The translations under genes were made by a program, and so were the position numbers. This document shows positions 3,350 to 56,387 of a DNA stretch of 64,000 bases, one piece after another. How positions within the stretch are numbered: the stretch's first letter is position 1; the number at the start of each line of letters is the position of its first letter. Source of the DNA: Gammaproteobacteria bacterium (lineage in GTDB: Bacteria; Pseudomonadota; Gammaproteobacteria; SURF-13); the NCBI GenBank assembly GCA_030680605.1, contig JAUXUQ010000001.1, positions 139,046 to 203,045 of the forward strand. Reading direction: 5' to 3'. The notes beneath the pieces were generated by a model. The model searched no databases, was not told where the DNA came from, and worked only from the letters and a program-made list of their open reading frames with translations.

Positions 3350-3358
3350 GTTTTTCAC

Positions 3359-5728: not shown

Positions 5729-5744
5729 CAGCCCAGCCGCCTAG

Positions 5745-6788: not shown

Positions 6789-6793
6789 TACTG

Positions 6794-7282: not shown

Positions 7283-7313
7283 CCAACATAAAAACAGTTA
7301 AACTGCCTCGCTC

Positions 7314-7922
7314 ATGGAACACATCATTTTTTATATTTTTGCCGCCATATTGCTGCTGTCAGCTCTAATGGTCATTACCGTCCGCAACCCGGTGTACGCG
7401 GCGCTGTTTCTGGTGCTTGCGTTTTTCACCAGCGCCGCCATCTGGCTGCTGCTCGAAGCCGAGTTTCTCGCGATTACGCTGGTGCTGGTATACGTCGGCG
7501 CCGTCATGGTGCTGTTCCTGTTCGTCATCATGATGCTGGATATCAACCTGACGGTGTTGCGCGATGGCTTTGCGCGCTACCTGCCTGTAGCGGCACTGGT
7601 AGCCACGCTGATTGTTGTAGAAATGGTGCTGGTCGTCGGCCCAGCCCACTTCGGACTCGACGTTATCGCGCCGCCTGTGCCGCATCCTGCCGACTACAGC
7701 AACACCCAGGCGCTGGGCAACGTACTCTATACCGTTTATGTATATCCCTTTGAGCTGGCGGCCACCATTCTGCTGGTCGCCATCGTCGCCGCTATAGCGT
7801 TGACCCTGCGCCGTCGGCCACAGGTCAAGTCACAGGATCCGGCACAGCAGGTGCTGGTGCGCAGCACTGACCGCGTGCGGATCATCAAGATGCCTTCGGA
7901 AAAGAAAGGGCAGGGGACATGA
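7314..7922 (+). CDS. nuoJ: NADH-quinone oxidoreductase subunit J
   Basis: 202 aa hydrophobic protein in the expected operon slot between nuoI and nuoK. Confidence 0.9.
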
Positions 7923-13166: not shown

Positions 13167-13489
13167 TGGCAGCCAGCACTGCATTCATCTGGGTATTGCT
13201 GCTACTGGCGGTGGTTGCAGCCAATCTGCCGTGGTTGAGCGAACGCGTATTCTTTATGTTCACACCCAAAAATGGCGTCAAAAGTCCCTGGATGCGTCTG
13301 CTCGAGTGGCTTGCACTGTATTTCGCAGTGGGGTTTATAGCCATGGGGCTGGAGCTAAAGCTTACCGGAAAACACCATGGCCAGACATGGGAGTTCTACG
13401 CCATCAACTTCTTTGTATTCCTGGTGCTTGCACTGCCTGGCTTCATCTACCGCTACGACCTCAAGGCACATTTTGACAAGCGCCGCTGA
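13166..13489 (+). CDS. small membrane protein, DUF2818-like, translationally coupled to nuoN
   Basis: 107 aa, three hydrophobic segments. TGATG overlap with the nuoN stop. A gene of this type follows nuoN in many beta/gamma-proteobacteria (from memory). Confidence 0.7.
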   Translation: MAASTAFIWVLLLLAVVAANLPWLSERVFFMFTPKNGVKSPWMRLLEWLALYFAVGFIAMGLELKLTGKHHGQTWEFYAINFFVFLVLALPGFIYRYDLKAHFDKRR

Positions 13490-13497
13490 ACCCCGGC

Positions 13498-14061
13498 TCA
13501 GCCTGCGCGCTCGACATACTCGCCACTCCCGGTATTGACCTTGATGCGGTCACCTACATCGACGAACTGCGGCACCAGTACGTTCAGCCCCGTCTCAAGT
13601 TTCGCATGCTTATAAGAACTGGTTGCGCTCTGGCCCTTGACCACGGGATCCGCCTCGACCACCTGCAGGATGACATTGGGTGGCAGCTCTATGGAGACCA
13701 ACCGCTCGTTATAAAGCCTGACCTGCACCTCGGTGGAGGGCAGCAAGTATCCGACTTGCTGCCCCATGAATTCCATGGGCACACTGATCTGCTCAAAACT
13801 CTCATTGTCCATAAACACCAGCACGTCATTTTCTTCGTAGGAATACGCCATTTTGCGGGCCTCCAGATCAACCTCGTCCACCTTATCCTCGGCGCGAAAC
13901 CGCTCATTCAGCTTTGTACCTGCCTCAATGTCCTTCATCTCCACTTGAGCGAAGGCTCCACCCTTGCCGGGCTTGACGTGCTCAACGCGTGACACGCGCC
14001 AGAGTCGGCCCTGATAGTCGAGCAAGGTATTAGGGCGGACAGAGGAGGCGGCGATCTTCAT
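13498..14061 (-). CDS. efp: elongation factor P
   Basis: 187 aa. The HVKPGKGGAFAQVEMKD loop and overall length are typical of EF-P. Confidence 0.85.
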   Translation of the reverse strand: MKIAASSVRPNTLLDYQGRLWRVSRVEHVKPGKGGAFAQVEMKDIEAGTKLNERFRAEDKVDEVDLEARKMAYSYEENDVLVFMDNESFEQISVPMEFMGQQVGYLLPSTEVQVRLYNERLVSIELPPNVILQVVEADPVVKGQSATSSYKHAKLETGLNVLVPQFVDVGDRIKVNTGSGEYVERAG

Positions 14062-14282
14062 GCTTTAATTCCAAGTGTTAGAGTGCGATGATTATAGGCT
14101 GCAATTGTCGGCGCCGTAATGGTCTTTGCGGTGTGTTCACCTGATACGTGCCGTTTGGCGATCAGCACGGGTTATTTTCTGTATTTTACTATAAATTATA
14201 AATAGTTATAATAATATTCTAATGTTATTTATGGGTAGTAATACGCGTGGAATCTGGCCCCCGGCCTGAGCCTGCCGCCGCC

Positions 14283-45477: not shown

Positions 45478-46335
45478 TCAGCAACCAAAGCGGCGCAGTA
45501 CACCCTCGACGGAGGCCACATAGCTGCCGCCGAACAGGCGCACATGCACCAGTAGCGGATACAGGTTGTAGATATCGCGGCGCACCTCCATAAAGCCGGG
45601 GGCAATCGGGTTAAGTTCGTTGTAGCGCTCAAAGAAAGGCCCGCCGAAGGTTCCGAACAGCGTGGTAAAGGCGAGCTCGATCTCGGGGTGGGCGTAGTAA
45701 ATGGCGGGGTCGATAAAGCCTGTGATCCGACCATTACGGGCCAGCACGTTGGCAGTCCAAACATCGCCGTGAATCAGTGCAGGGTACCTCGGCTCCTCCA
45801 GCCAGCTGTCGAGACGTGCCGCGAACCTTTCCAGCCGGGTCAATAATGCCTGCGGCATGCGCCGGGCAGATACCGCCTCTCCGCCCATGTACAGCAGGCG
45901 CTGGTCGCGGAAAAATTCCAGCCAGGACGCGGTCCACGGGTTTGGCTGGCGCAAACCGCCTATCAGAGTTTCTTCCTCAAAGCCAAAACCCTGCGGGGCA
46001 TGTAACCGGTGCAGCGCCGCCAACAGCTCGGCCGCATGCGATTGCGCCGATGGCGGAAACTGGCTTTCACCCTCAATGTACTCCATTAACAACAATGTGT
46101 TGCTGCTGTGCAAAACCGCCGGTACCGGCAGGCTGGTGTGCGTAGCGAGATAGGACAGCATCCGGCCCTCACAGACCAGACGCGGGGTGGGAGAGCGATC
46201 TATTTTTGCCACCCATGCACGACCATCAGCGCAGGTGACATGGTACACCTCGCCCACACAACCGCCTGTCAAAGGCTCTATGGAGCGCGGCACACTACCG
46301 GTAATCGCGGCAACCGTATCCTGCCACCCGGGCAT
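45478..46335 (-). CDS. fructosamine/ketosamine-3-kinase family protein
   Basis: 285 aa. GGCVGEVY, HGDVWTANVL and YYAHPEIELAF motifs. The start overlaps the ptp stop by 1 nt (TGATG). Confidence 0.8.
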   Translation of the reverse strand: MPGWQDTVAAITGSVPRSIEPLTGGCVGEVYHVTCADGRAWVAKIDRSPTPRLVCEGRMLSYLATHTSLPVPAVLHSSNTLLLMEYIEGESQFPPSAQSHAAELLAALHRLHAPQGFGFEEETLIGGLRQPNPWTASWLEFFRDQRLLYMGGEAVSARRMPQALLTRLERFAARLDSWLEEPRYPALIHGDVWTANVLARNGRITGFIDPAIYYAHPEIELAFTTLFGTFGGPFFERYNELNPIAPGFMEVRRDIYNLYPLLVHVRLFGGSYVASVEGVLRRFGC

Positions 46336-46823
46336 CAGCGCTTCAGATGATGCTGGCGGATATCCTCGAGCAGTCCATAAGAGGCCTCCTCAACCAGATC
46401 AATGACCCGTTCAAAACCGCTGGATCCGCCATAGTAAGGGTCAGGCACTTCGCGCTCACTCAGGTGTGGCGCAAATGCCAGCAGCAGCCGTAGCTTCTGC
46501 CGCTGGACCGTATCGACACACAGCTGCTCAAGGTTGGCACGGTTTTCATTGTCCATGGCAAGCACGTAATCAAACTGCTCAAAATCAGACACCTGCACAC
46601 GTCGCGCACGTTGCTCACGGATATCAAAGCCACGGATCAAGGCACTGCGTTGGGCGCGCTCGTCGGGCGGATCGCCGACGTGATAGCTGTGAGTACCGGC
46701 CGAATCTACAGCCACACGGTCCTGCAGGCCCTCCTGCTCAAGCAGCTGCTCAAAGAATCCGTGCGCCAGCGGCGATCGGCAGATGTTGCCCATGCATACA
46801 AATAGTACTTTCACGATTGGCAT
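46335..46823 (-). CDS. ptp: low-molecular-weight protein-tyrosine phosphatase; first 5 codons supplied by the inserted element
   Basis: 162 aa. VLFVCMGNICRSP P-loop (CX5R-S) and DPYYG motif. Codons 6-13 lie in the 25-bp att repeat. Confidence 0.9.
   Translation of the reverse strand: MPIVKVLFVCMGNICRSPLAHGFFEQLLEQEGLQDRVAVDSAGTHSYHVGDPPDERAQRSALIRGFDIREQRARRVQVSDFEQFDYVLAMDNENRANLEQLCVDTVQRQKLRLLLAFAPHLSEREVPDPYYGGSSGFERVIDLVEEASYGLLEDIRQHHLKR
46784..46808 (+). repeat. attL core (25-bp direct repeat TGTTGCCCATGCATACAAATAGTAC)
   Basis: Exact match to 56271-56295. Lies inside ptp codons 6-13. Confidence 0.9.
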
Positions 46824-46900
46824 GATTGTGGTAACATGTTGATTTATAAGAGTTGCAAAACTTATATTTACTTATATAAACATTTAATCTAGTATTTTCG

Positions 46901-46920
46901 GTGTATCCAGCGGTGTATCC
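46901..46920 (+). repeat. two GTGTATCC motifs (putative integrase arm-type sites) at the left arm
   Basis: GTGTATCC at 46901-46908 and 46913-46920. The same octamer recurs four times next to attR. Confidence 0.6.
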
Positions 46921-46927
46921 GAAGGCC

Positions 46928-47962
46928 ATGAATGAGACAACTATCAGGGCGCTGAGACAACAAGCCGCCGACTATATGACCGGGTGCGGCGGGGGCTTGT
47001 GGTTGCGGGTTCGCACCACCGGGCGCAAAACCTTCATCGTCCGCCGCAAGGTGGCCGGCAAGCCCAAAGTTATCACCCTGGGAGATTGGCCTACCCTTTC
47101 GCTCAAAGATGCATCCCGGCTTGCCGTCACCGTCAAAACACCTTCTGACGCCACCATCGGCACCTTGCTTCAACGATACCACGACGCGGTCATCAAAGGC
47201 CATGCCAGGCCCGCGCAGTTCGCCACCTACGAGAAACGCATCCGACTGGCCATGGGGAATGCCCGCGTGTCCGAAGTCACCGCGAAGCGCCTAGCGGAGT
47301 TGGTATCGAACCACCGGAGCACGCCGAGGGCGGCAGACAGCCTGCGCAGCCATCTCAAGGCCATGTTCGCCCTCGCCATTGAGCTCGGCTTGCGGGATGA
47401 CAACCCCGCTTCCGTCATTGGCGCCCGCGTCACCGGGTACACCTACGCGCCGCGCACCCGCGTCCTGACCCATGATGATATCCGCCAACTATGGGCCTGG
47501 GATGGCCGCAACGCGGCGCTGTTGCGCTTCCTGCTGCTTACGGGCCTTCGGATATCAGAGGGCCAGCATGGGCGGCAGGACGGCGATCTGTGGCGCATCG
47601 AAAAAACCAAAAACGGCAGGCCGCATTGGGTGTTCCTGACGCCCACGGCAAAAACACAGCTTGCAGAATCATTCAATGTATCCCCGACCGCCGTGCAAGC
47701 GTGGGTGCGGCGTCGCGGCGTGACTTGGACGCCGCATGATCTGCGCCGCACCTTCGCCACGCTGGCGAAAGATGCCGGCGTCCTGCCGCACGTTATCGAG
47801 AAGGCATTAAACCACGCTCTCGAAGGGATGCTGCGCATTTACGACCACGCCGAAATGACCGAGGAACGCATCGTTGCAGCGAAGACGGTCGAGCGCGTGG
47901 TGCTCGAAATCACTGGGGCCACCGGCAGTACCGGCGGCAAAAAAAGCGGGGCCGCAAGGTGA
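46928..47962 (+). CDS. int: tyrosine site-specific integrase (P4-type, with N-terminal arm-binding DUF4102-like domain)
   Basis: 344 aa from ATG 46928. N-terminal GLWLRVRTTGRKTFIVRRKVAGKPKVITLGDWPTLSLKDA, and a catalytic region with HDLRRTFATLA ... LNH ... RIYDH. Confidence 0.9.
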   Translation: MNETTIRALRQQAADYMTGCGGGLWLRVRTTGRKTFIVRRKVAGKPKVITLGDWPTLSLKDASRLAVTVKTPSDATIGTLLQRYHDAVIKGHARPAQFATYEKRIRLAMGNARVSEVTAKRLAELVSNHRSTPRAADSLRSHLKAMFALAIELGLRDDNPASVIGARVTGYTYAPRTRVLTHDDIRQLWAWDGRNAALLRFLLLTGLRISEGQHGRQDGDLWRIEKTKNGRPHWVFLTPTAKTQLAESFNVSPTAVQAWVRRRGVTWTPHDLRRTFATLAKDAGVLPHVIEKALNHALEGMLRIYDHAEMTEERIVAAKTVERVVLEITGATGSTGGKKSGAAR

Positions 47963-48015
47963 ACCACCACCAAGCGACCCCTGACCACAACCGCAACCAA
48001 CAAGGAGTAGCGATC

Positions 48016-48339
48016 ATGGCTGACACCAATTCTATCATCAATATTGAAAATGAAATTTTCGATGCAATGTGTACCGTGGACGAAGCTGCGGCTCTTCTGC
48101 GCACGTATCTCAGCTTGATGTCCGATACAATTCCTGATCTTGGGGTACCGGCATACGATGGAAAATGCCTGGACGATTCAGGCCAGAGCGCCGAGGTGAG
48201 AATGAGCTCGCGATTCTACGCACTGCTGCCGCCGGCCCATGAACAGGTGTATCGGCTTTACAGGCTTAAGGATAAGCTGGGGGCGCTCTACGCCGCCGCG
48301 TCGCGGCGGGCACTAGCAGATGGCGTTGTTTCAATATGA
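48016..48339 (+). CDS. hypothetical protein (island)
   Basis: 107 aa from ATG 48016, with AGGAG 7 nt upstream. No family recognised. Confidence 0.55.
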   Translation: MADTNSIINIENEIFDAMCTVDEAAALLRTYLSLMSDTIPDLGVPAYDGKCLDDSGQSAEVRMSSRFYALLPPAHEQVYRLYRLKDKLGALYAAASRRALADGVVSI

Positions 48340-48554
48340 ACAACCAACCTGCTGCAAGCAAGGGCGTATATTTCACCACTGACCCGAAGATGATCCGTTT
48401 GTGCAGGCAACTGGAAGCCGCACCAGAGTGGATAAAGGATAAGGCCGTACGGTACGCGATCCGGGTAGCGAACAAGGACCCCAAGCTGCAACGCCTCATT
48501 GAGTTGCGGGACAAGGGCTTCATTTCGCCTGAGGAGTTCTGGCGGCGGATGTAA
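48336..48554 (+). CDS. hypothetical small protein (island), ATGA-coupled to the upstream ORF
   Basis: 72 aa. Overlaps the previous stop (ATGA). No family recognised. Confidence 0.5.
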   Translation: MNNQPAASKGVYFTTDPKMIRLCRQLEAAPEWIKDKAVRYAIRVANKDPKLQRLIELRDKGFISPEEFWRRM

Positions 48555-48655
48555 CTAGGTTTGCCGCGCCTAGCCCGACGGGGCGAATAGCCGGGATACC
48601 TTCACCGGCATGGTGCGGCTCTTATTTGAGGGTGGCACTGTGAAGGGTGTGCGCC

Positions 48656-49396
48656 ATGAAAAAACCAATACCAATCGATGATGTACTCGATTATGTCTCT
48701 TTTCGACGAGAGGAAGACAAGTATATCCCCAAGGAAAAAGCGAAGGAGTTTCATAATACATGCTTTAAAATAGTGTCCGAAGCGCTGCTTGAAACACTCG
48801 GCAAAGTATCTGGCAAGCTACGGGATGAAGTCTCGCGTGGTAGTGGCCAACACGTCCTTGTTGAAATGCTGAGCAAAGCTTTTGAGGAAGCATTTTATGA
48901 GGCCGCGCGAAAAATTGAAAAATTAGGCGAAAATGACTGGGGCATGGCCCGTGCTGCTGCCGCTTCTGCGGCTGCTCTGCGAGGTGAGGAACCACCACCT
49001 GAGGATGATTTTACATGGCTTGCCCTGGCAGCAAAACACGGCAACGAGATTGAGTACCGCCAAGCCATGCAACACGAAATTATCGGCATATTGAAAAGTG
49101 GTAAACCACTGCCAAATGCCGCACGCCTTTGGCTAGCTTACGTTATTGAGCGAGTACAAATTCCACATGACGGTAAGCACGCACCGCTGCGCAGGCGGAC
49201 GCGCGAGGCGCGTCGATACTACTTGGCAGAGTTTATTGTCGAAGATGAAAAAGCCCATATGCGCAGCACCACCACTGCGCGATTAAAACGCGCTACCAAG
49301 CAACTGCACGTCTCTTATGAGACAGCTCGCGCCAGCTATTACGCAAAGGATTTTAAGTGGATGTTGGATTATCTGCGAAAAAAACAAGACGTGTAA
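48656..49396 (+). CDS. hypothetical protein with a possible C-terminal helix-turn-helix (island)
   Basis: 246 aa from ATG 48656. Lower GC than the rest of the island. The C-terminal segment RLKRATKQLHVSYETARASYYA looks HTH-like. No family recognised. Confidence 0.6.
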   Translation: MKKPIPIDDVLDYVSFRREEDKYIPKEKAKEFHNTCFKIVSEALLETLGKVSGKLRDEVSRGSGQHVLVEMLSKAFEEAFYEAARKIEKLGENDWGMARAAAASAAALRGEEPPPEDDFTWLALAAKHGNEIEYRQAMQHEIIGILKSGKPLPNAARLWLAYVIERVQIPHDGKHAPLRRRTREARRYYLAEFIVEDEKAHMRSTTTARLKRATKQLHVSYETARASYYAKDFKWMLDYLRKKQDV

Positions 49397-49398
49397 TA

Positions 49399-49431
49399 TT
49401 AACCAATCAGTTATTTAGAATGATTGGTTAA
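49399..49431. repeat. perfect 11-bp inverted repeat (TTAACCAATCA-N11-TGATTGGTTAA)
   Basis: Read directly. Lies between the 246-aa ORF and the excisionase-like gene. No T-run follows, so an operator is as likely as a terminator. Confidence 0.7.
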
Positions 49432-49480
49432 ATGTAGTCACGTTAGCATTCCCTCATGTTAAAGGATGTGAGGAAATGAA

Positions 49481-49768
49481 ATGCGCGACACTAAGCCCCA
49501 TGCCCCCCCTCTCCCGCTAGCGGTCAACCTCAGGGGTGCGGCAGAACTGTCGTCCTTTTCAGAATCGACAATCGACCACGCTATCCGTGCCGGTGAACTG
49601 TCATGCCGACGGCACGGCAACCGCGTCCTTATCCGTACTGCCGATCTGGCCGCGTGGATTGACGCCCTCCCGTCCGGGCGCCCTGCGGCGCCACCCCATC
49701 TCGAAGGCCGCCGTACCGGGCGCCCGCCGACGCGGCCGCAGAAAATGGGCAAGCTGCGCCATGGCTAA
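49481..49768 (+). CDS. excisionase/AlpA-like helix-turn-helix DNA-binding protein
   Basis: 95 aa. LRGAAELSSFSESTIDHAIRAGELSCRRHGNRVLIRTADLAAWIDAL matches the excisionase-family HTH pattern. Pro/Arg-rich tail. Confidence 0.75.
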   Translation: MRDTKPHAPPLPLAVNLRGAAELSSFSESTIDHAIRAGELSCRRHGNRVLIRTADLAAWIDALPSGRPAAPPHLEGRRTGRPPTRPQKMGKLRHG

Positions 49769-50090
49769 GCACCAGCCCATGCACAATTTCGTCGCTCTGC
49801 CGCCCGGCAAACGGGTGCAGGATGTCTTGCCGTGGTTCAAAGGAGTGAAGCACGAGGCGCCGCCGCTCGGCACACCATGCCCTTATTGCGCCAGCTGTCG
49901 CAAGCTATTCACGCCAGCGCGCAGGCGGCGATACGATCTCAAAATTATTCCCCTTCACATCCAGCTTCCCCTTATTTTTCTTTATCACCTTTGCGGCGCG
50001 TGCTCGCATAAATATCAGATCGGCGGTGAGGAAAAGGAAGGCGTGTTGGCAGCAGTGGAGCAATTCATTGAGGGCGAGAAAAGCCAATGA
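49761..50090 (+). CDS. Cys4 zinc-ribbon-like small protein (island)
   Basis: 109 aa from ATG 49761, which overlaps the upstream stop (ATGGCTAA). CPYCASC ... CGAC cysteine pairs. No family recognised. Confidence 0.55.
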   Translation: MAKHQPMHNFVALPPGKRVQDVLPWFKGVKHEAPPLGTPCPYCASCRKLFTPARRRRYDLKIIPLHIQLPLIFLYHLCGACSHKYQIGGEEKEGVLAAVEQFIEGEKSQ

Positions 50091-50108
50091 TCCAGGCCGA
50101 GGCTACCA

Positions 50109-50966
50109 ATGCCAAATAGAATTTTGCGCGAAGGCATTCTCGCTAGCGAGCGCGTAGCAATGCTCTCCTGGGCCGAAGAGGTTTTTTACCGCCGCATCAT
50201 GTCGGTGGTTGATGATTTTGGTCGTTATCATGCGAACCCTAAGCTGCTGCGGGCAGCATGTTACCCACTCTTGATCGATAAAGTATCCGACGCGGACACT
50301 GGGAAGTGGCTCACCAGTTGCGTGACAGCGGCCCTTGTAAGTGTGTACCTGGCACCGGACGGGAAGCGATACCTGCAACTGCTGGACTTCCGCCAGCAAA
50401 CGCGAGCAGAAAAGAGCAAGTACCCGCCACCGCCTGAAGGATGCACGGCAGCTACTACGCATGTGAGTAGCATCTGCGTAGCAGATGCGCACTTAGACGG
50501 AGACGGAGACGGAGACGTAGAAGACCTTGCGCAGCCTGCGGCATGCGCCGACACGTCAAGAGTTCCAAGAGCGCCAACAGTCAGGGGTGATGGGTTCCCC
50601 GCATTCTGGCGGGTGTACCCGAAGAAGCGCAGCAAGGGGGATGCCGAGAAGGCGTGGAAGACGCTCAAGCCGGACAAGGCGCTACAGACCACAATAATCA
50701 CCGCTGTGGAGCATGCCAAGAAGAGCAAGGACTGGGTGAAGGATGGTGGTGAGTTCATCCCCTACCCTGCTAAGTGGCTTCGGGGGAAAGGTTGGGAGGA
50801 TATTGATCTTGTCGCGGTCGCCGCGCAATCATCCAATCGACGGTCGTGCTGCTGGATAGACGATCACGGGGTGTCGTGCGCGGCGACTAGTGTTGGACAT
50901 GTATCTGGCAAGGGCTATTGCCAGAATAAAGCACACCAAGACTTTGCGTTTTACGGCGAAAAGTAA
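50109..50966 (+). CDS. phage replication-organizer-like protein
   Basis: 285 aa. The N-terminal NRILREGILASERVAMLSWAEEVFYRRIMSVVDDFGRY and the C-terminal FWRVYPKKRSKGDAEKAWKTL...W..DGGEFIPYPAKWLRGKGWED resemble prophage replication-initiation/organizer proteins (from memory). Confidence 0.6.
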   Translation: MPNRILREGILASERVAMLSWAEEVFYRRIMSVVDDFGRYHANPKLLRAACYPLLIDKVSDADTGKWLTSCVTAALVSVYLAPDGKRYLQLLDFRQQTRAEKSKYPPPPEGCTAATTHVSSICVADAHLDGDGDGDVEDLAQPAACADTSRVPRAPTVRGDGFPAFWRVYPKKRSKGDAEKAWKTLKPDKALQTTIITAVEHAKKSKDWVKDGGEFIPYPAKWLRGKGWEDIDLVAVAAQSSNRRSCCWIDDHGVSCAATSVGHVSGKGYCQNKAHQDFAFYGEK

Positions 50967-51211
50967 GGGGCGTGGATCGCTGCGCTCTCTGTGTGAGCGC
51001 TGGTGGCCGCTACCATATTGCCCGCATGTGCTGCAATGTGCGTTCGTGCTGGCACTGCCGACCAGCGACCTGCGAGCCGGGTGGCTGGCGCGAGGATCGC
51101 ACTTAAGGTACTCCCCGTCCGCTCCAAGCAGGGGTAATTCGAACCCCGATTTTTTTGTAGTGGGTGGGCTTTTGGATTGGTTAAAGGTTGGGGCTGTAGG
51201 TTAATCATCCC

Positions 51212-51616
51212 GTGATAGACGCCAGCCCATCAGTCCGCCTCCAGCGCCTGGTAGAAATCGCGCAAGAGCACGATCCGGATCTGGCGCTCTGGCTGCACAG
51301 TGGCGTTGCCGCCTGGCGGGATGGAACCAGCCTTGACGCGGCGCTCGGTCTCCAGTCCAGCGATATGAGAAGGGCGCGCGACCGTGCGCTGCGCGAGGCC
51401 GCCAGATGTATCGACCCGGATGGGGGAATGCCACGCTGGGCGGTGGCTGGCCTGCTTGCGTCTGCGCTGAGATCCTTCGAATCAACCACGTGGCTGCGCT
51501 ACAAGGAAGCGGCGGAACAGCCCCCCCTGCCGCCGCTAAAGCTGGCGCTCTGGGCGGCCTTCCGCAGTGGCGCAAGGCCGATACGCAGTCAGCGAAAACT
51601 ATTCGAGATTCTCTGA
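51212..51616 (+). CDS. hypothetical protein (island)
   Basis: 134 aa with a GTG start. No family recognised. Confidence 0.45.
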   Translation: MIDASPSVRLQRLVEIAQEHDPDLALWLHSGVAAWRDGTSLDAALGLQSSDMRRARDRALREAARCIDPDGGMPRWAVAGLLASALRSFESTTWLRYKEAAEQPPLPPLKLALWAAFRSGARPIRSQRKLFEIL

Positions 51617-51619
51617 CCA

Positions 51620-51655
51620 AATTTCTGACATTGGTCAGAAATTGGGTGTTTTAAT
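51620..51655 (+). terminator. rho-independent terminator-like hairpin
   Basis: 10-bp stem AATTTCTGAC/GTCAGAAATT with loop ATTG, followed by GGGTGTTTTAATAATTT. Confidence 0.6.
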
Positions 51656-51689
51656 AATTTCACATTAACAACTGGTGAGGAATTGAATT

Positions 51690-52736
51690 ATGCAGATTGG
51701 TAAATTTAAGCCCGCTGACATCCTCGACGCTATGCCAGATTGGGTGCTCACGCGCTCTGGAAGGCAGCCGGCAAAACCACACCCCATCGCTCGGCGAATG
51801 GTTGATGAACACGCCAGCCTTGCCGATATCGCCAAGCTGGTAGGCAGCGTTGAGGCCTTGAAACAGGGCAGGCCCGCCGATGACCTGAGGGCCCTCGGCC
51901 TGGGCATGAGTAGTTCTGACTTTACAGCGGCGCTGGGGGGCTCATTGCGTCGGGTTGTGGCGTTGGCATATGATGCCTCCAGCCCCCATCGCGCGTTCAC
52001 TCTACCGGTTCCAGCCCGGAACTTTCTGCAAGTGGATTTTCCTTCCGTTGACTTATCAGACGAACTACCTCCTGTCGGGGAGTTGAGCGAACTCAAACAC
52101 CAGGTCGTCAATGTGAGCACCGGGCTTTCTGCGCAGCTGTACACCTATGGCGGCGCAATATTGGTGACGCGGAACACTATCATCAACGACGATGTTGGGC
52201 TGCTTGACACCGTTTTCACGCAGCGAGGCGCCGCTGCGGCGCGCACCGAGGCGCGGATTATTTATGCACTACTCGAGTCGAATCCTATGTTGGCCGATGG
52301 CGAGCTGATGTTCGATGCTGGGCACGGCAACATTGTTGCCGCCAGCCTGGACGCTGCCAGCCTCGCGGCGGCCATGGGCGCCTTGCGCACACAGCCAACC
52401 CTGAGTGGCAACCTATCAAACAGCAAGGCGGCCTTCTTGATTATATCTGCCGCGCTCGAGTACCACGCCATGAAACTGCTGCATGACATCGGCGCCACCA
52501 CTATCGATATCATTGCCTCGCCATGGCTGCCGGCAGATCGCTGGTATTTGATGGCAGCGCCTTCGGTGGCGCCAGTGATTGGCCGTCTATATCTTGAAGG
52601 AAATATCGGCTCGCGGCCAACCATTGTTGAAGTGATAGAGCCGAAGATCAGTATCGACGGAATAATGTTAAGGGTGATGGCTGATTTTGGCGCTGTGCCT
52701 CTTGGCCGCCTCGGTGTCGTGCGAGGTGGCGCGTGA
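51690..52736 (+). CDS. phage major capsid protein-like (HK97-fold type, tentative)
   Basis: 348 aa. The central and C-terminal pattern (YTYGGAILVTRNTIINDD..., ADGELMFDAGHGN, AAFLIISAALEY, WYLMAAPSVAPVIGRLYLEG..PTIVE) resembles Mu gpT/HK97-like major head proteins (from memory; not verified). Confidence 0.5.
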   Translation: MQIGKFKPADILDAMPDWVLTRSGRQPAKPHPIARRMVDEHASLADIAKLVGSVEALKQGRPADDLRALGLGMSSSDFTAALGGSLRRVVALAYDASSPHRAFTLPVPARNFLQVDFPSVDLSDELPPVGELSELKHQVVNVSTGLSAQLYTYGGAILVTRNTIINDDVGLLDTVFTQRGAAAARTEARIIYALLESNPMLADGELMFDAGHGNIVAASLDAASLAAAMGALRTQPTLSGNLSNSKAAFLIISAALEYHAMKLLHDIGATTIDIIASPWLPADRWYLMAAPSVAPVIGRLYLEGNIGSRPTIVEVIEPKISIDGIMLRVMADFGAVPLGRLGVVRGGA

Positions 52737-52960
52737 TGAACGTCCGTCGCGATTACGCCAAGCTAACAGAGGCTGTGGCGAACCTGGACGCGGAGATCGG
52801 CGTCCAGCTGGAGGCGATTGATGCTGCGCTGGCGAGCGGGAACCATGCAGGCGCGGCGACGTACCGTGCCATCGAGGCGCGAGCGAGGAAGCGCCTGCAG
52901 AATCTTGTCAAAAAGGCGCAGGCTTTTCAGCGGCGCGTCGCACGAGGGCTAGCAGCATGA
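52733..52960 (+). CDS. small helical protein (island)
   Basis: 75 aa. Overlaps the capsid-like stop. Ala/Arg-rich and predicted helical. Confidence 0.45.
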   Translation: MMNVRRDYAKLTEAVANLDAEIGVQLEAIDAALASGNHAGAATYRAIEARARKRLQNLVKKAQAFQRRVARGLAA

Positions 52961-53382
52961 GCGTCCGTGAATTTGAAAAACTGACTGCCGAGATCGCCGA
53001 GCTCGATGCATTGCTTGATACCGAGCTTGATGCTTTGCACGCGGCGAAGATGGTAAAAAACCCCCAGGCGATAACCCAGCGCCGGCTGGAGGCACAGAGG
53101 ATCGAGGCAGAACTCGAAAATATAGTGGATCGGGCGCGCGTAATGCACCGCGACTTCTGGCTTGCCCAGGCTAAAAAATATGAAGCGATGATCCCCGATG
53201 CTGTGCGCCCTATCCATGCATTGCACCGCGCTCGCAGCCTTGCTGGCAAGGCACACAGCTTAGATGTCGTGATTGCCCAAGCCATCAGCCTGACCGCGCC
53301 GGCGCCCCCTTTCGAGGGCACCGAATTTCCGGAAGCGGCACCCGATTCGGACGCGCTACGCCGCGCCGAAATCGAAATATAG
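52957..53382 (+). CDS. coiled-coil protein (island)
   Basis: 141 aa. ATGA overlap with the previous ORF. The N-half has a heptad-like EL/DAL pattern. Confidence 0.5.
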   Translation: MSVREFEKLTAEIAELDALLDTELDALHAAKMVKNPQAITQRRLEAQRIEAELENIVDRARVMHRDFWLAQAKKYEAMIPDAVRPIHALHRARSLAGKAHSLDVVIAQAISLTAPAPPFEGTEFPEAAPDSDALRRAEIEI

Positions 53383-53388
53383 TTTTTC

Positions 53389-53431
53389 TATGCGGCGAGC
53401 GAGAGAGCGCCTACCCATAGCTCGCCGCATA
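53389..53431 (+). terminator. 12-bp perfect inverted repeat (possible terminator or processing site)
   Basis: TATGCGGCGAGC-N19-GCTCGCCGCATA, starting 7 nt after the stop at 53382. Only a weak T-tract follows. Confidence 0.4.
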
Positions 53432-53585
53432 TCTTGCGCGTTTCTCCGGCACGCAAGTGGTCCTCCGTATGGGCTCAGCGCACCGTAGTTGTCATCGTTG
53501 ATGGCAGCAGAAAAAACCGACGGACCCGGCCTAGGCAGCCGGTGCAAGGTTTGAATGATATCGAACACCACGCGGGAGATTGCTT

Positions 53586-56009
53586 ATGACGGTTAAAACC
53601 AAAATCATCATCGAGGGCGATGACCGCAGCAAGGCGGCGATCAGCTCGGCCAAGGCCAACATGGCCTCGCTGGCTGCTGCGGGCAACAAACTTAATGGCT
53701 TGCTGAGTCGTATGGGCGCCGGGTTGAGTGTCGCTTCCATTCTCGCATTTAGCAAAGCGTCCATAAAAGCATTCGCCGAGTCTGAGGAGGCGGTGCGCAA
53801 ACTCGACGCGGTTTTGAAGGCTACCAGGCTTGCCGCCGGGCTTACCCGGAAAGAACTCATTAAAGATTCCGCCGAGTTTCAGCGAACGCTGGGATTCTCG
53901 GATGAGTCTGTGATTGCTGCGCAGATCGAGTTACTCAAATTCCGGGTTATCAGCAAAGCCACCTTTGGCGATGCTATCCGGCTGGCGGCTGACTGGGCGC
54001 GGCTTACCGGCACTGATCTGCCAGAGGCGGCGGCCAAGCTTGGTAAGGCACTCGCCGACCCCGAAGCTGCCGCGCGGCTCCTGAAAGAAGCGGGCGTGGT
54101 ACTGACTGACAACCAGAAGAGTCTGCTGAAATCATTTGAAGACGTCAATGATAAGGCGGCGGCGCAGAACGTCATTATGGACGCGCTGCGCGGCTCCATC
54201 GGTGGTGTTGCAACAGAAATGAACACCGGCCTGCTCAAGGCAACGAATGATCTGAAAAATGCCTGGAATGATTTATTGGAGGTGCTCGGGAAAAAGATAA
54301 GCCCGGCGGCGACCGGCAGTGCAGGCGGTCTTGCCGGTGCGATCAATGTTACGAGAAAGCTGATCGAAGGGACATTTTTAGCGGAGCTGCAGGCCCCACG
54401 AATTGACCCCTTCGGCCGGGATGGCGGTCTACTCGCCGGGATAACGCTGGAGGACTACAAGGCAGCTCAGGGCCAAATTAATGAACTGACCCGCCAACAA
54501 TCCGAAAAGGATGCCGAAGACGCCAGGCTAAAATCCGAACTGGATAAAAAAGCACTGGACAAGCGAGTGGCTGCAGAAAAAGTCTCAGCGGAGGCGGCGG
54601 CCAAAGCCCGCCTGGCGCTGGCGCGCACCCAGGCCGAGCAACTGGCGCGGCTGGAACAGGACGACATCAAGCGCGCGCTGGATGCCAACAAGCAACTCTA
54701 CGACGACAAACTTATTACGGCGGGTGACTACTACGCCACGCTGGCGGCGCTGCAACAGCAGCAGGCGGCGAGCGAGATCGCGCTGCTGGAGCAGCAACGC
54801 GCCGCCGCGCTGGCCATTCAGCGCGACCCAGGCGCGGAGGCGGCGGAAAAGATCAAGGCCGCCGGCGATCTTTTGAAAATCGAGGCCGAGATCGCGCTGG
54901 TGCAGAACCGCGTCGCCGGCGAGGCCGCCGCCTCCACCACGGCGCAGATCGCCGCGCGCCGCGACGCGGTGAAGACGGCGCAGGACATGGTGGATGCGCT
55001 GACGCTGGAGGCGCGGCTGCTCGGGCTTACCAATCAGGAACGCGAGCGCAGCGTCGCGCTGCTGGAGATGGAAAAGCTGCAAGTCAATTTGACCACACAA
55101 GAATATGAAAAACTCAGCGCGGCGCTGAATGCTGCGCTGGACGACAAGCAGGCGGCGGAAGCGCGACGCAAGGCGCTGGATGAAGCGGTGGAACAGGCGA
55201 AGGATATTTACCGCGCGCTGGCCGAAAACCTGCAACGCTCGATTGCCGATGTGCTCAACAACGCCTTTACCGGCGAGGTCGCGCGCGGTGCGGTGCTGGG
55301 GCTGGTGAATCTGGTGCGGGTGTCGCTGTCAAACGTGCTCGCGGCCAGCCTCACCGATTCTATACTGCAAGCCTTCCCGCGCGAGTCGGTGATCGGCGCA
55401 GGTAAATTTTTCGGGCTCGGCGCCAAGCGCGACGGTTCCACCCAGGCGAACGCGGTCTACGTGCAAGACGTGGCCACCGCCGCCGGCGCGGATGTCGGCG
55501 GCGAGATTGCCGCGCAGACGGAATCCATTTTCTCGCGCCTCGGCTCCATGCTGTCAAACCTGCTCGGCACGCTCGGCTCGCTGCTGTCGAGCCTGTTGAG
55601 TTCGCTCGGATCGGCCTTGTCGGGGCTAGCGGGCGGCATCGGCACGCTGTTCGGTTTTGCGGAGGGCGGCTATACCGGCGCGGGCGGCAAATACCAGCCG
55701 CGCGGGATTGTGCACGGCGGCGAGTATGTGTTCAGCGCCGCCGCCGTGCGCCGCCTGGGCGTGGGCATGCTGGACAACATGCACCGCATCAGCTCGGGTA
55801 ACTTCATGCCCGCCGCGCCGCGCCTCAGTTACGCTGAGGGCGGACTGGTGAATCTGCCTGGCGCACCGAACGTGTCATTCAGCATGAAGAACATCAACGT
55901 GCTGGATCCGTCGCTGGTGGCGGGCTTTCTTGCCACTACTAGCGGCGAGCGTGCGATTCTGAATATTATCGAGCGCAACCCTGGCGCAATCCGCCAGGTG
56001 ATCGGCTGA
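53586..56009 (+). CDS. phage tail tape measure protein
   Basis: 807 aa from ATG 53586, with GGGAG 7 nt upstream. The N-terminal core (LPEAAAKLGKALADPEAAARLLKEAGVVLTDNQKSLLKSFED...AAQNVIMDAL), a long Ala/Gln/Glu coiled coil, and the C-terminal GGYTGAGGKYQPRGIVHGGEYVFSA motif are typical of lambda-type tape measures. Confidence 0.85.
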   Translation: MTVKTKIIIEGDDRSKAAISSAKANMASLAAAGNKLNGLLSRMGAGLSVASILAFSKASIKAFAESEEAVRKLDAVLKATRLAAGLTRKELIKDSAEFQRTLGFSDESVIAAQIELLKFRVISKATFGDAIRLAADWARLTGTDLPEAAAKLGKALADPEAAARLLKEAGVVLTDNQKSLLKSFEDVNDKAAAQNVIMDALRGSIGGVATEMNTGLLKATNDLKNAWNDLLEVLGKKISPAATGSAGGLAGAINVTRKLIEGTFLAELQAPRIDPFGRDGGLLAGITLEDYKAAQGQINELTRQQSEKDAEDARLKSELDKKALDKRVAAEKVSAEAAAKARLALARTQAEQLARLEQDDIKRALDANKQLYDDKLITAGDYYATLAALQQQQAASEIALLEQQRAAALAIQRDPGAEAAEKIKAAGDLLKIEAEIALVQNRVAGEAAASTTAQIAARRDAVKTAQDMVDALTLEARLLGLTNQERERSVALLEMEKLQVNLTTQEYEKLSAALNAALDDKQAAEARRKALDEAVEQAKDIYRALAENLQRSIADVLNNAFTGEVARGAVLGLVNLVRVSLSNVLAASLTDSILQAFPRESVIGAGKFFGLGAKRDGSTQANAVYVQDVATAAGADVGGEIAAQTESIFSRLGSMLSNLLGTLGSLLSSLLSSLGSALSGLAGGIGTLFGFAEGGYTGAGGKYQPRGIVHGGEYVFSAAAVRRLGVGMLDNMHRISSGNFMPAAPRLSYAEGGLVNLPGAPNVSFSMKNINVLDPSLVAGFLATTSGERAILNIIERNPGAIRQVIG

Positions 56010-56100
56010 CCCTCTTGTCAGGCTGAGTGCCAGCGCGTCGTTCAGCCATGCGCTGGATGCATCCGCTAAAGGCTAGGCGTAGCTTCAACCCCTGCCGCAC

Positions 56101-56126
56101 AACCCGCCCAAGTGGCGGGTTTTTTA
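56101..56126 (+). terminator. rho-independent terminator after the tape measure gene
   Basis: 8-bp GC-rich stem AACCCGCC/GGCGGGTT, loop CAAGT, then TTTTAT. Confidence 0.8.
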
Positions 56127-56139
56127 TGCGAGTGACACG

Positions 56140-56236
56140 GTGTATCCAGCATGGCGTTGTGGCGGGTTTTCATGTTTGCAAAAAGCGGTGGTGTATCCAG
56201 CCGTGTATCCAATTCAAGGTGTATCCGGCGGGATAC
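56140..56236 (+). repeat. cluster of four direct GTGTATCC motifs plus one inverted partial copy (putative arm-type sites, right arm)
   Basis: GTGTATCC at 56140-56147, 56191-56198, 56203-56210 and 56219-56226. GTATCCGGCGGGATAC palindrome at 56221-56236. Confidence 0.6.
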
Positions 56237-56270
56237 CGCAGCGCATAAGGCTTTTATCAGCTATGTTTCT

Positions 56271-56295
56271 TGTTGCCCATGCATACAAATAGTAC
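56271..56295 (+). repeat. attR core (25-bp direct repeat) with the relic 5' end of ptp
   Basis: Exact copy of 46784-46808. The reverse strand of 56271-56310 reads TAG ATG ATG GTA CGG GTA CTA TTT GTA TGC ATG GGC AAC, i.e. the ancestral MMVRVLFVCMGN start. Confidence 0.9.
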
Positions 56296-56387
56296 CCGTA
56301 CCATCATCTACTCCATCAACCCCTTGCCTCGCCGTGCTACGCCCTGAAAATTGGACTTTCCGGGTACCGCATGGGTATTGTATACGC

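Follow-up and report, generated by a model that had tools for sequence, protein, structure and literature searches.

The window, i.e. the whole 64-kb stretch of DNA that we analysed, harbours at 46785-56295 a 9,487-bp island which we interpret, with a probability of about 0.72, as an intact, helper-dependent integrative element, that is, a phage satellite. We prefer this reading over that of a skeleton prophage because the reduced architecture recurs elsewhere and its genes are under purifying selection. The island belongs to an apparently undescribed family of ~10-kb elements, widespread in Beta- and Gammaproteobacteria, whose hallmark is a three-gene capsid module in which the gene for a stand-alone HK97-fold major capsid protein (MCP) follows an orf134-like gene and precedes an orf141-like one. 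A capsid protein is encoded by the elements themselves, as is a tape-measure protein (TMP) in about half of the lineages seen. The preliminary description had pictured the structural set as two isolated genes, a view that gives way to this conserved module plus TMP. The features of the island are the following:

46785-46808, no strand: attL core, 24-bp direct repeat GTTGCCCATGCATACAAATAGTAC, identical to 56272-56295
46900-46920, plus strand: arm-type repeats GGTGTATCC, two copies (repeat families D4 and D15), putative integrase arm sites
46901-47962, plus strand: intact tyrosine integrase, 353 aa (Pfam Arm-DNA-bind_3, Phage_int_M and Phage_integrase; phrog_1, E=4e-48)
47959-48554, plus strand: two small ORFs (126 aa and 72 aa), no assigned function
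48563-48632, plus strand: int-alpA RNA motif (Rfam RF02996; 61.9 bits against a gathering score of 35.8)
48647-49396, plus strand: orf249, directly 3' of the RNA motif, no assigned function
49481-49768, plus strand: AlpA/excisionase-type HTH protein, 95 aa (Pfam HTH_17, E=2e-7; excisionase PHROGs; TIGR01764)
50109-50966, plus strand: replication initiator, 285 aa, phage-type module (phrog_5810, phrog_270, phrog_9474)
51212-51616, plus strand: orf134, family-specific partner gene directly 5' of the MCP gene (homologs in related loci)
51690-52736, plus strand: predicted stand-alone HK97-fold MCP, 348 aa (Pfam, NCBIfam, AF2, Foldseek)
52733-52960, plus strand: orf75, incomplete copy of orf141 corresponding to its N-terminal half (39 % identity over 67 aa)
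52957-53382, plus strand: orf141, family-specific partner gene directly 3' of the MCP gene (homologs in relatives)
53586-56009, plus strand: predicted mosaic TMP, 807 aa from the ATG at 53586 or 809 aa from the TTG at 53580 (TMP_2, PHROGs)
56101-56121, plus strand: intrinsic-terminator-like hairpin with T-run 3' of the TMP gene, the best terminator-like site
56136-56238, plus strand: arm-type repeats GGTGTATCC on the attR side, three to four copies (repeat families D4 and D15; from the sequence)
56272-56295, no strand: attR core, 24-bp direct repeat GTTGCCCATGCATACAAATAGTAC, identical to 46785-46808

Both att ends and the integrase had been taken as intact, and this is what we found: the 24-bp repeat is perfect, the translated integrase keeps all catalytic residues (R-K-HxxR-H-Y), and the arm-type repeats at 46900-46920 are matched by copies close to attR. 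The attL core lies within the 5' end of a low-molecular-weight protein-tyrosine-phosphatase (ptp) gene (46335-46823, minus strand), whose new start (MPIVK...) and upstream region are supplied by the island, and the attR side retains the original start (MVR...); the target gene is repaired by the island's own start codon. Related elements display comparable parts, namely a 354-aa integrase with 38 % identity to that of the window (L013) and an int-alpA RNA motif directly 3' of the integrase gene (L029, 66.4 bits). The two small ORFs and orf249 gave no significant family match in Pfam, PHROGs, NCBIfam or PADLOC; the former yielded a weak SHOCT match only, and the sole match of the latter was an NCBIfam family far below its cut-off (E=0.0037, 16.9 bits against 245). 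The replication initiator shares 80 % amino acid and 84 % nucleotide identity with that of an unrelated myophage contig (L032), rep being the only part common to both.

The long ORFs at 51690-52736 (348 aa) and 53586-56009 (807 aa) exist as first described, are uninterrupted, and are the only two recognisable as virion genes with Pfam, PHROGs and NCBIfam, which among the other island ORFs found no terminase, portal, protease, connector, tail tube, chaperone, baseplate or lysis families. The shorter one, formerly termed capsid-like, is helical in its N-terminal region, lacks a protease domain and falls into Pfam Phage_capsid_4 (PF25209, E=2.1e-31); the NCBIfam model ‘prohead protease/major capsid protein fusion’ (E=4e-51) aligned only with its C-terminal MCP half, and solved Mu-GpT-type capsids were matched by its profile at ~1e-8. 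Its AF2 model (pLDDT 96.6, pTM 0.91) retrieved 322 PDB matches at E<=1e-3 in Foldseek, the top-ranked ones listed being all HK97-fold shells, with encapsulins among the best. Profile and model agree in predicting that this ORF is an HK97-fold MCP. Its phage homologs show at most 30 % identity (about 26-30 %), and the annotated ones among the records listed are mostly protease::MCP fusions. At E<=1e-30 there are 341 clusters at 50 % identity, and 149 of the best 150 of these do not exceed 403 aa; the stand-alone forms, with some 150 or more such clusters, constitute a large clade of their own, distinct from the fusion forms of phages.

Homologs of orf134 lie directly upstream of the MCP gene in nearly all relatives, with an insertion in between in L008; the family has no match in PHROGs or PDB, and the window copy none in Pfam. 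The interval 52733-53382, previously singled out next to the MCP gene, comprises two translationally coupled partial paralogs of 75 and 141 aa, orf141 being coupled via an ATGA overlap. orf75 is conserved in L021, a second copy of the window element with 84 % nucleotide identity, and orf141 is homologous to a 146-170-aa gene directly after the MCP gene in relatives, while matching no known family. For neither orf134 nor orf141 was a PHROG family found.

The 807-aa ORF was rightly read as an intact tape measure: it exceeds the cut-off of Pfam TMP_2 (36.2 against 30.2 bits), matches PHROG TMP families as well as a lambda-type C-terminal TMP domain, and its layout of TMP_2 (residues 31-179), coiled-coil centre, Gly/Ser/Leu-rich hydrophobic segment and lambda-type C-terminal motif is that of a full TMP. 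Over its C-terminal ~470 aa it shares 46-56 % identity with TMPs of siphophages that have a protease::Phage_capsid_4 fusion as their MCP. Furthermore, the siphophage contig L020 encodes a ClpP::Phage_capsid_4 fusion together with a TMP whose N-terminus matches the TMP of a Thiobacillus element (44 %) and whose C-terminus matches that of the window (46 %). Judged by sequence, siphophages with such fusion MCPs are the likely helper type. The earlier idea of tail re-sizing loses most of its appeal, as the closest phage TMPs measure 841-853 aa, which at 0.15 nm per residue amounts to a marginal difference of only about 5-7 nm. Across the family, TMP genes occur at the 3' end of six elements from five lineages (the window element with L021, L004, L006, L008 and L031) and belong to three sequence types (TMP_2/lambda-C, phrog_13338/8462 and PF10145); other elements have none. 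L004 and L009 differ in the primase module and the TMP cassette and are otherwise collinear at 84-85 % nucleotide identity. On such comparisons, the TMP gene is a swappable 3'-end accessory cassette and not part of the family core. The sequence of the terminator-like hairpin at 56101-56121 is kept in L021.

The orf134-like/MCP/orf141-like trio was found in at least 12 divergent lineages (L001-L009, L013, L021, L023, L026 and L028-L031; MCP identity to the window 29-41 %) from Thiobacillus, Rhodocyclaceae, Burkholderiales and Gammaproteobacteria genomes and metagenomes. Recurrence of the reduced architecture holds for the capsid trio, but for the TMP in only about half of the lineages. Between their direct repeats the elements span 9,487, 10,024, 10,496 and 10,724 bp (L031, ~9.9 kb), and where boundaries are visible, they sit at a tRNA or tmRNA gene or inside a protein-coding one. 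Their size is similar with or without a TMP, as would be expected if packaging limited it. The capsid module of relatives is adjoined by genes for DUF927 or DUF3987 primases and by Nu1-like or HTH small-terminase-like genes; several relatives carry a TerS-like gene, whereas in the window element no small terminase, cos or pac site was recognisable. Comparison with L021 gave dN/dS values of 0.16 for the MCP C-terminus, 0.16 for orf75, 0.21 for orf141 and 0.17 for the TMP (an average over the whole gene), at dS of 0.36-1.09 and with no frame disruptions; all four late genes tested are under purifying selection. Counted against a satellite are the lack of portal and protease and an MCP only ~26-30 % identical to any phage MCP found, so that its fit to the portal, protease and connectors of a helper is presumed. 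In addition, the 64-kb window contains no helper phage and no MCP or TMP paralog, and the viral contigs of IMG/VR yield no sign of encapsidation, because no close family members were found there.

Among other explanations, the best placed, though an improbable one, is an interference or defence island whose MCP and TMP homologs would be dominant-negative decoys poisoning siphophage capsid and tail assembly; the element itself would move by another route or rarely, and MCP and TMP would not serve particles of its own. The variable 3' cargo position of the TMP and its presence in about half of the lineages would suit such a role, as would the missing portal, protease and TerS of the window element and an MCP so distant from phage MCPs that co-assembly with them is not obvious; moreover, blockage of tail assembly is known from satellites and islands (Tai systems, PMC11364771; PLE11 Rta). 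However, the full architecture, near-phage length and dN/dS of 0.17 of the TMP are those expected for a working tape measure, and the narrow size range (~9.5-10.7 kb) as well as the TerS-like genes and primases of relatives point to packaging. PADLOC detected no known defence family on the island, and in known satellites interference and self-transfer are not mutually exclusive.

Very unlikely, in our view, is a once-complete lambdoid prophage cut by several deletions, with MCP and TMP surviving by chance. The gene order indeed resembles the lambdoid map, and close phage relatives exist for rep (80 % aa) and the C-terminal half of the TMP (46-56 % aa), but chance survival sits poorly with bounded ~10-kb elements that bear the reduced capsid module in no fewer than 12 divergent lineages, a large and separate stand-alone MCP clade, partner genes without PHROG family, dN/dS of 0.16-0.21 in all four genes with frames unbroken at dS up to ~1, and intact att sites and integrase beside a repaired target gene. 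Recurrence had been named beforehand as what would set a satellite apart from a skeleton prophage, and it was seen in many divergent ~10-kb elements; a full-length prophage collinear with the island at high identity (int, rep, MCP, TMP) was not found in relatives, the closest phage contigs sharing single modules only. Just as implausible is a helper-independent, tail-less mini-virus or encapsulin-like compartment built from a small portal-less HK97 shell (T=1-4 particle or nanocompartment), akin to the ‘twilight’ mini HK97 entities postulated from metagenomes: encapsulins rank among the best structural matches, ~8.9-kb integrative elements with MCP and scaffold but no tail or portal genes are on record (preprint 10.1101/2025.06.18.659913), and about half of the family has no tail gene, yet fold similarity of this degree does not tell HK97 capsids from encapsulins, the family MCP groups by sequence with Mu-GpT/Phage_capsid_4 phage capsids, no cargo-type enzymes are encoded, and the recurring Nu1-type small terminases and TMPs imply terminase- and tail-dependent particles.

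For the satellite that we favour, we propose that upon induction of, or infection by, a helper siphophage with a protease::MCP fusion, Int and AlpA would excise the element, which Rep would then amplify. The MCP and its two partner proteins, possibly acting as scaffold, size-determining or cement factors, may form or redirect small capsids fitting ~10 kb, while the helper would supply portal, protease, terminase, connectors and tail tube. By analogy with PLE, the element TMP could take the place of the helper TMP in helper-derived tails, generating chimeric tails. Speculatively, the benefit might lie less in tail length than in independence from, or resistance to, factors targeting the helper TMP, such as exclusion, defence or entry blocks.

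Several known systems share parts of this design. P4-like satellites are likewise integrative, ~10-11.6 kb long and equipped with a P4-type integrase architecture, and relatives of the window element carry DUF3987/primase-type replication genes as they do; the size of the window element, like that of P4, fits a small (T=4-like) capsid. In contrast to the MCP-encoding window element, P4 has no MCP and resizes P2 capsids via Sid and Psu; homologs of Sid, Psu, Delta and Alpha were not detected in the island with Pfam, PHROGs and NCBIfam. PLEs are ~18 kb long, carry a serine recombinase and use the external scaffold TcaP. The PLE of Vibrio cholerae encodes a TMP, TAC and BhuB, giving chimeric tails with the PLE TMP, and its virions contain ICP1-encoded capsid proteins, PLE having no MCP of its own (bioRxiv 10.1101/2025.01.29.635557). 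In PLEs and the window family alike, the TMP is encoded by the element itself and TMP groups differ between variants; PLE takes its other tail parts from the helper, which is only proposed for the window element. PLE also encodes a tail assembly chaperone and parasitises a lytic myophage, whereas the window TMP has no accompanying chaperone, and no sequence homology was found between island proteins and PLE components. Mycolicibacterium EPIPs encode MCP and TMP and lack most other virion genes, and their authors proposed that the TMP remodels helper tails (PMC12822802, preprint December 2025). Satellite-encoded TMPs have therefore already been reported, and the former view of known satellites as lacking such genes is outdated by PLEs (bioRxiv 10.1101/2025.01.29.635557) and by EPIPs with both MCP and TMP (PMC12822802). 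EPIPs differ from the window element in their actinobacterial host, in a serine recombinase instead of a tyrosine integrase, in additionally encoding TerS, head-to-tail adaptor, stopper and scaffold, and in having been isolated as particles; the sequences are unrelated.

The ‘twilight’ mini HK97 elements (bioRxiv 10.1101/2025.06.18.659913) resemble the window element in size (~9 kb) and in combining integrase, replication gene, MCP and scaffold without portal or terminase, and one of them contains a TMP-annotated ORF. Unlike the window element, they stem from human-gut samples, have encapsulin-like MCPs and were interpreted as tail-less; the preprint (10.1101/2025.06.18.659913) reports no link to orf134/orf141 or Phage_capsid_4-type MCPs. 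Proteobacterial cf-PICIs share with the window element a small integrative format, tyrosine integrase, AlpA-type regulator, replication module and an HK97 MCP of their own, their capsids being satellite-encoded and their tails coming from helpers. Whereas cf-PICIs carry terminase, portal, protease, MCP and head-tail connectors as one coherent module for head formation and packaging, the window element has only the MCP and two partner genes, and in addition a TMP. An IMG/VR contig (L010) with portal, S78 protease::MCP fusion and integrase looks, by its gene content, like an intermediate form.

The island at window 46785-56295 is, by its sequence, an intact integrative element of 9,487 bp whose ends are a perfect 24-bp direct repeat, and which carries a capsid module of three genes (an orf134-like gene, a stand-alone major capsid protein (MCP) and an orf141-like gene; the trio) together with a complete tape-measure protein (TMP), both under selection. 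Its genes lie on the plus strand throughout, as listed here.

Features of the island and its left junction
46335-46823, minus strand: ptp, low-molecular-weight phosphotyrosine phosphatase, whose 5' end contains the left att repeat
46785-46808 and 56272-56295: att repeats GTTGCCCATGCATACAAATAGTAC
plus strand: tyrosine integrase, 353 aa, every catalytic residue visible in the translation
plus strand: two small ORFs without assigned function, between the integrase and the int-alpA RNA motif
48563-48632: int-alpA RNA motif (Rfam RF02996, 61.9 bits)
plus strand: orf249, between the int-alpA RNA motif and the AlpA-type gene
plus strand: AlpA/excisionase-type HTH protein, 95 aa
50097-50969, plus strand: replication initiator (Rep), 285 aa
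plus strand: orf134, between the replication initiator and the capsid ORF
plus strand: capsid ORF, 348 aa
plus strand: orf75 and orf141, translationally coupled, 3' of the capsid ORF
spacer of 200 nt between orf141 and the TMP gene
ATG at 53586, plus strand: TMP ORF, 807 aa
56101-56121: strong terminator-like hairpin, 3' of the TMP gene

The start of ptp was replaced by the island and now reads MPIVK-VLFVCMGN, while the original MVR-VLFVCMGN is still readable at attR; along with these first codons the upstream region was exchanged (window 46785-46823 versus 56272-56310), and ptp probably remains functional under signals from the island. Copies of GGTGTATCC clustered close to both island ends are probably integrase arm sites. 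The left flank contains RNase E, a fructosamine kinase-like gene and ptp, the right flank kdsB, lpxK and msbA, and the remainder of the window, including the nuo operon, uvrC and tRNAs, consists of ordinary chromosomal genes; neither a helper phage nor paralogs were found within these 64 kb, and GC content does not distinguish the island from its surroundings. One of the chromosomal genes, at 17269-20244 and adjoining a tRNA-Gly/Cys/Leu cluster, encodes a 991-aa protoglobin-PAS-GGDEF-EAL signalling protein.

The preliminary description had recognised two structural genes and none of the rest of the virion set, and scans with Pfam, PHROGs and NCBIfam agree, as no ORF besides MCP and TMP matched a terminase, portal, protease, connector, tail tube, chaperone, baseplate or lysis family. 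Likewise, no defence families were found in the island by PADLOC, and it contains no recognisable TerS, cos or pac site. The terminal integrase, the flanking att repeats and the AlpA-type regulator in the same orientation are traits of PICIs of the Gram-negative type.

Profiles and a structural model place the 348-aa ORF as a predicted HK97-fold major capsid protein of the Phage_capsid_4 / Mu GpT-like type. It scores 110.6 bits against PF25209 (Phage_capsid_4; cut-off 27, E=2e-31) and 23.2 bits against PF10124 (cut-off 20.1), and matches the NCBIfam 'prohead protease/major capsid protein fusion' at E=4e-51; since the alignment to these fusion models of ~640 aa spans only their C-terminal part (positions 277-621 of 634), the protein has no protease domain. 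The family profile also matches solved Mu-GpT-type capsids (8rkx, 8rkc, 9jod; JBD30-type) at E ~1e-8. An AF2 model from a 4-sequence alignment was unusable (pLDDT 41.7) and was replaced by one from 121 family sequences (pLDDT 96.6, pTM 0.91). In the latter, a helical N-terminal region of ~100 residues leads into a hairpin, a long spine helix and beta-rich domains. This model has 322 PDB matches in Foldseek at E<=1e-3, the top-ranked ones listed all being HK97-fold capsids or encapsulins, and the best BFVD matches are phage MCPs. The refutation named in the preliminary description, a capsid-like ORF without the HK97 fold, therefore does not apply.

Phage homologs of this MCP are distant. Identity to phage MCPs is 26-30%, INPHARED homologs are all at most about 30% identical, with the annotated ones among those listed mostly called capsid/protease fusions, and in IMG/VR scans with MCP alignments close family members were lacking, distant protease::MCP phage-like contigs being the sole matches where there were any. 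When 1.84 billion cluster representatives were searched exhaustively with a profile, 341 clusters reached E<=1e-30; 149 of the best 150 are no longer than 403 aa and therefore represent stand-alone MCPs, the 150th (543 aa) being the sole one among these able to carry a protease. Because of the size and lengths of this clade and its distant, mostly fusion-annotated phage homologs, the stand-alone MCP is a large and old lineage specific to these elements and no recent prophage remnant. A 7.8-kb viral contig (L010, IMG/VR UViG 3300025510_000030) encodes at 2681-7787 an integrase, a portal of the lambda family and an S78 protease::Phage_capsid_4 fusion with 35% identity to the window MCP; this contig may represent a cf-PICI-like form that bridges phages and the elements with a stand-alone MCP.

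Does the reduced architecture recur? MCP relatives were sought in species-representative genomes, metagenomes and Logan assemblies and were recovered at 29-41% identity, among others in Thiobacillus denitrificans DSM 12475 and in MAGs of Thiobacillus, Rhodocyclaceae, Burkholderiales and Gammaproteobacteria. Loci with visible boundaries are small integrative elements, in which the trio is found in conserved order and whose size is narrow, about 9.5-10.7 kb with the window element included, with or without a TMP; the recurrence for which the preliminary description had asked is thereby found.

Elements related to the island, with size and site
L006: 10,724 bp, 85-bp repeats at a tRNA-Arg
L004: 10,496 bp, tRNA-Ser
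L009: 10,024 bp, tRNA-Ser
L031: about 9.9 kb, between a tRNA fragment and a tRNA
L003/L028: beside a tmRNA gene
L013: about 9.7 kb, size estimated from gene content

The common gene order is integrase, small regulators, replication module, often a Nu1-like or HTH/TerS-like gene, the trio, and variable 3' genes. The replication modules of relatives contain satellite-type primases (DUF927, DUF3987 or Toprim), that of the window element a phage-type initiator and no primase. The latter gene is 84% identical at the nucleotide level and 80% at the amino acid level to positions 964-1827 of a myophage contig (L032) with Dam methylase, TerS and TerL, portal, S78 protease, PF05065 MCP and tail sheath, which has nothing beyond rep in common with the island; this indicates that rep, as a single module, was recently exchanged between island and phage. 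The 137-aa ORF that follows rep in this phage is no homolog of orf134. Full-text searches of open-access papers and bioRxiv gave no description of such an architecture in Proteobacteria, and the minimal combination and its family appear to be undescribed.

An orf134 homolog lies immediately 5' of the MCP in nearly all loci, the exception being L008, and an orf141 homolog of 146-170 aa immediately 3' in most. In L008 the orf134-like gene is separated from the MCP by an inserted ~4-kb block (2813-6990) that includes a P63C/anti-repressor-like gene, with a duplicated orf134 fragment at 6841-6987. The additional orf75 (52733-52960) is a partial copy, in tandem, of orf141's N-terminal coiled-coil half (52957-53151). 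Profile and sequence searches with the orf134-like and orf141-like proteins gave no meaningful PHROGs or PDB match, nor do the window copies match any Pfam family significantly. A tail chaperone was rejected as the primary reading of orf141, since its homologs follow the MCP also where a TMP is lacking. Right after the orf141 stop codon, at 53389-53431, there is a perfect inverted repeat of 11-12 bp (ATGCGGCGAGC...GCTCGCCGCAT), the pairing of which is maintained via G-U changes in the second element copy L021; the 200-nt spacer as a whole folds not significantly better than shuffled sequence (z=-1.55).

This second copy, a 3.8-kb contig aligned to window 52370-56159 at 83.9% nucleotide identity, is arranged identically (MCP end, orf75, orf141, TMP). 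Nei-Gojobori dN/dS between window and L021 is 0.16 for the MCP C-terminus, 0.16 for orf75, which is kept in both, 0.21 for orf141 and 0.17 for the TMP, at dS of 0.36-1.09 and with zero frame disruptions. Random decay would not predict such low ratios with intact frames.

The 807-aa ORF has the make-up of a complete tape-measure protein, with a TMP_2 domain at residues 31-179 (36.2 bits, cut-off 30.2), a phrog_24 match (E=1e-24), a long helical centre with a Gly/Ser/Leu-rich hydrophobic stretch, and a lambda-type C-terminus (motif GFAEGGYTG...GIVHGGEYVF; TIGR01541 at E=1e-8, below the curated cut-off). No tail chaperone was found alongside it by family match in Pfam and PHROGs. In the window element and L021, L004, L006, L008 and L031, a TMP gene is the 3'-terminal gene next to attR; it is lacking in the complete or nearly complete elements L009, L013, L023 and L028/L029. 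Furthermore, the TMPs are of different types, namely TMP_2 with a lambda-type C-terminus in the window, phrog_13338/8462 in the Thiobacillus elements and L008, and PF10145 in L031. L004 and L009 are collinear at 84-85% nucleotide identity, and their sole differences are a swapped primase module and a 2.25-kb block, present in one and absent from the other, that comprises a 75-aa gene, the TMP and a 71-aa gene. The TMP is thus best seen as an accessory cassette that was acquired from one specific phage lineage.

That lineage can be tentatively located. The C-terminal ~470 aa of the window TMP are 46-56% identical to three phage TMPs of 841-853 aa: P0007 (56%; 49% over a longer 552-aa alignment), and P0009 and P0008 (46-54%) from phage contigs L020 and L022. 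The latter two are encoded in normal siphophage tail modules, in which the tail terminator, major tail protein and chaperone-sized ORFs precede them and distal tail genes follow. L020 also encodes a 678-aa ClpP::Phage_capsid_4 fusion, and its TMP is 44% identical to a Thiobacillus-element TMP over the N-terminal 240 aa, its C-terminal half matching the window TMP. Because capsid type and TMPs both point there, one phage group probably comprises the donors and probable helpers of these elements. Compared with its phage relatives, the window TMP is shorter by only 34-46 aa, equivalent to about 5-7 nm, which makes a changed tail length unlikely as its point; of the earlier idea of a satellite that resizes its helper's tail, the TMP-bearing satellite stands, whereas the resizing is unlikely here. 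The Thiobacillus-element TMPs of 556-558 aa would make a larger tail-length difference, if the helper resembles L020.

The satellite interpretation is supported in outline, with two corrections to the preliminary description: the TMP is accessory, and the claim made there that known satellites carry no such genes is out of date, given the TMPs of PLEs and the MCP and TMP of EPIPs. Classical PICIs are defined without capsid or tail structural genes, whereas the island has MCP and TMP. cf-PICIs possess a complete head/packaging module; the island has the MCP only, without portal, protease, terminase or connectors by Pfam, PHROGs and NCBIfam, and by the same scans its ORFs have no matches to Sid, Psu, Delta, Epsilon or Alpha of P4-like satellites. 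With PLEs (Vibrio host, ICP1 helper) it has a TMP in common, but neither a chaperone family match nor PLE-specific homologs. EPIPs employ a serine integrase, TerS, head-to-tail adaptor, stopper and scaffold; the island integrase is a tyrosine recombinase, and MCP and TMP alone are in common, no TerS, adaptor or stopper having been detected in the island. VEIMEs, unlike the island, are reported without MCP genes. Functionally, the island looks like a cross between a cf-PICI, which has its own capsid protein, and a PLE, which has its own TMP.

We propose that an L020-type helper siphophage would provide terminase, portal, protease, connectors, tail tube, tail tip and lysis. Int and AlpA would mediate excision and Rep amplification; the MCP, assisted by the orf134-like and orf141-like proteins in a scaffolding, size-determining or cementing role, would form small capsids for about 10 kb, and the island TMP would nucleate tails built from helper parts. 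Chimeric tails with a satellite TMP were shown experimentally for PLEs (bioRxiv 10.1101/2025.01.29.635557). It could be speculated that a private TMP frees the satellite from factors acting on the helper TMP. In its full form, the reading is that of a new, widespread proteobacterial satellite family remodelling both virion ends, in which a fusion-derived MCP and two partners form a small ~10-kb shell using helper portal and protease, and a swappable, helper-matched TMP yields chimeric tails; we give it a probability of roughly 35%.

Among the alternatives, an interference or defence island, with MCP and TMP acting as assembly poisons, is unlikely yet the best of them: the cargo-like position of the TMP fits, whereas a full-length TMP under selection fits less well, as do the size constraint and the packaging genes of relatives, and such a function could coexist with self-transfer. 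A skeleton prophage is very improbable, as the reduced set recurs with genes under selection, the MCPs form a distinct clade, the partner genes are not in phage families, and the nearest phage contigs have only single modules in common with the island. Equally remote is a tail-less mini-virus or encapsulin-like shell, for which the encapsulins among the Foldseek matches and a preprint on gut mini HK97 elements (10.1101/2025.06.18.659913) could be cited, but against which stand the sequence affinity of the MCP to phage GpT-type capsids and the recurrence of TerS and TMP genes in the family.

A satellite family that is widespread and uncharacterised, with recent conceptual precedents, is credible on computational grounds. 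If correct, it would be intermediate between satellites without an own MCP (P4, PICIs, PICMIs) and capsid-forming PICIs, would add environmental Beta- and Gammaproteobacteria to the range of satellite-encoded tape measures, which so far have experimental proof for Vibrio PLEs only and have been proposed for EPIPs of mycobacteria, and would make the TMP a modular cassette exchanged with helper lineages. Intriguing questions would follow: how does a satellite-MCP shell use the portal and protease of an L020-type helper, which has its protease fused to its own MCP whereas the island MCP stands alone, and what is the selective advantage of a private TMP? The orf134-like and orf141-like proteins provide two new marker families for finding such elements, which, to our knowledge and judged by their marker sets, current satellite detection schemes would probably miss.

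The control regions show further features. The int-alpA RNA motif of the window (48563-48632) and of L029 (1336-1404), a related element from a Rhodocyclaceae-type lineage, lies just after the integrase region and directly 5' of a ~250-aa gene; in the window, the alpA-like gene is not directly downstream. No similarity is detectable between orf249 and the 249-266-aa genes at comparable positions in relatives. An ORF at 49536-50090 (plus strand), mainly 49770-50090, overlaps the end of the alpA-like gene in another frame and fills the 340-nt gap before rep; it has a Cys-rich, Zn-ribbon-like C-terminus (CPYC...CGAC) and no PADLOC match, and may be a separate small gene starting from an internal ATG. 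L029 contains at 3125-3210 a C4 antisense RNA (Rfam RF01695, 76 bits), an RNA family known as phage P1/P7 immunity RNA. Finally, in L003/L028 a second tyrosine integrase gene (13023-14102) immediately follows the tmRNA-associated element, which suggests tandem integration of another element.
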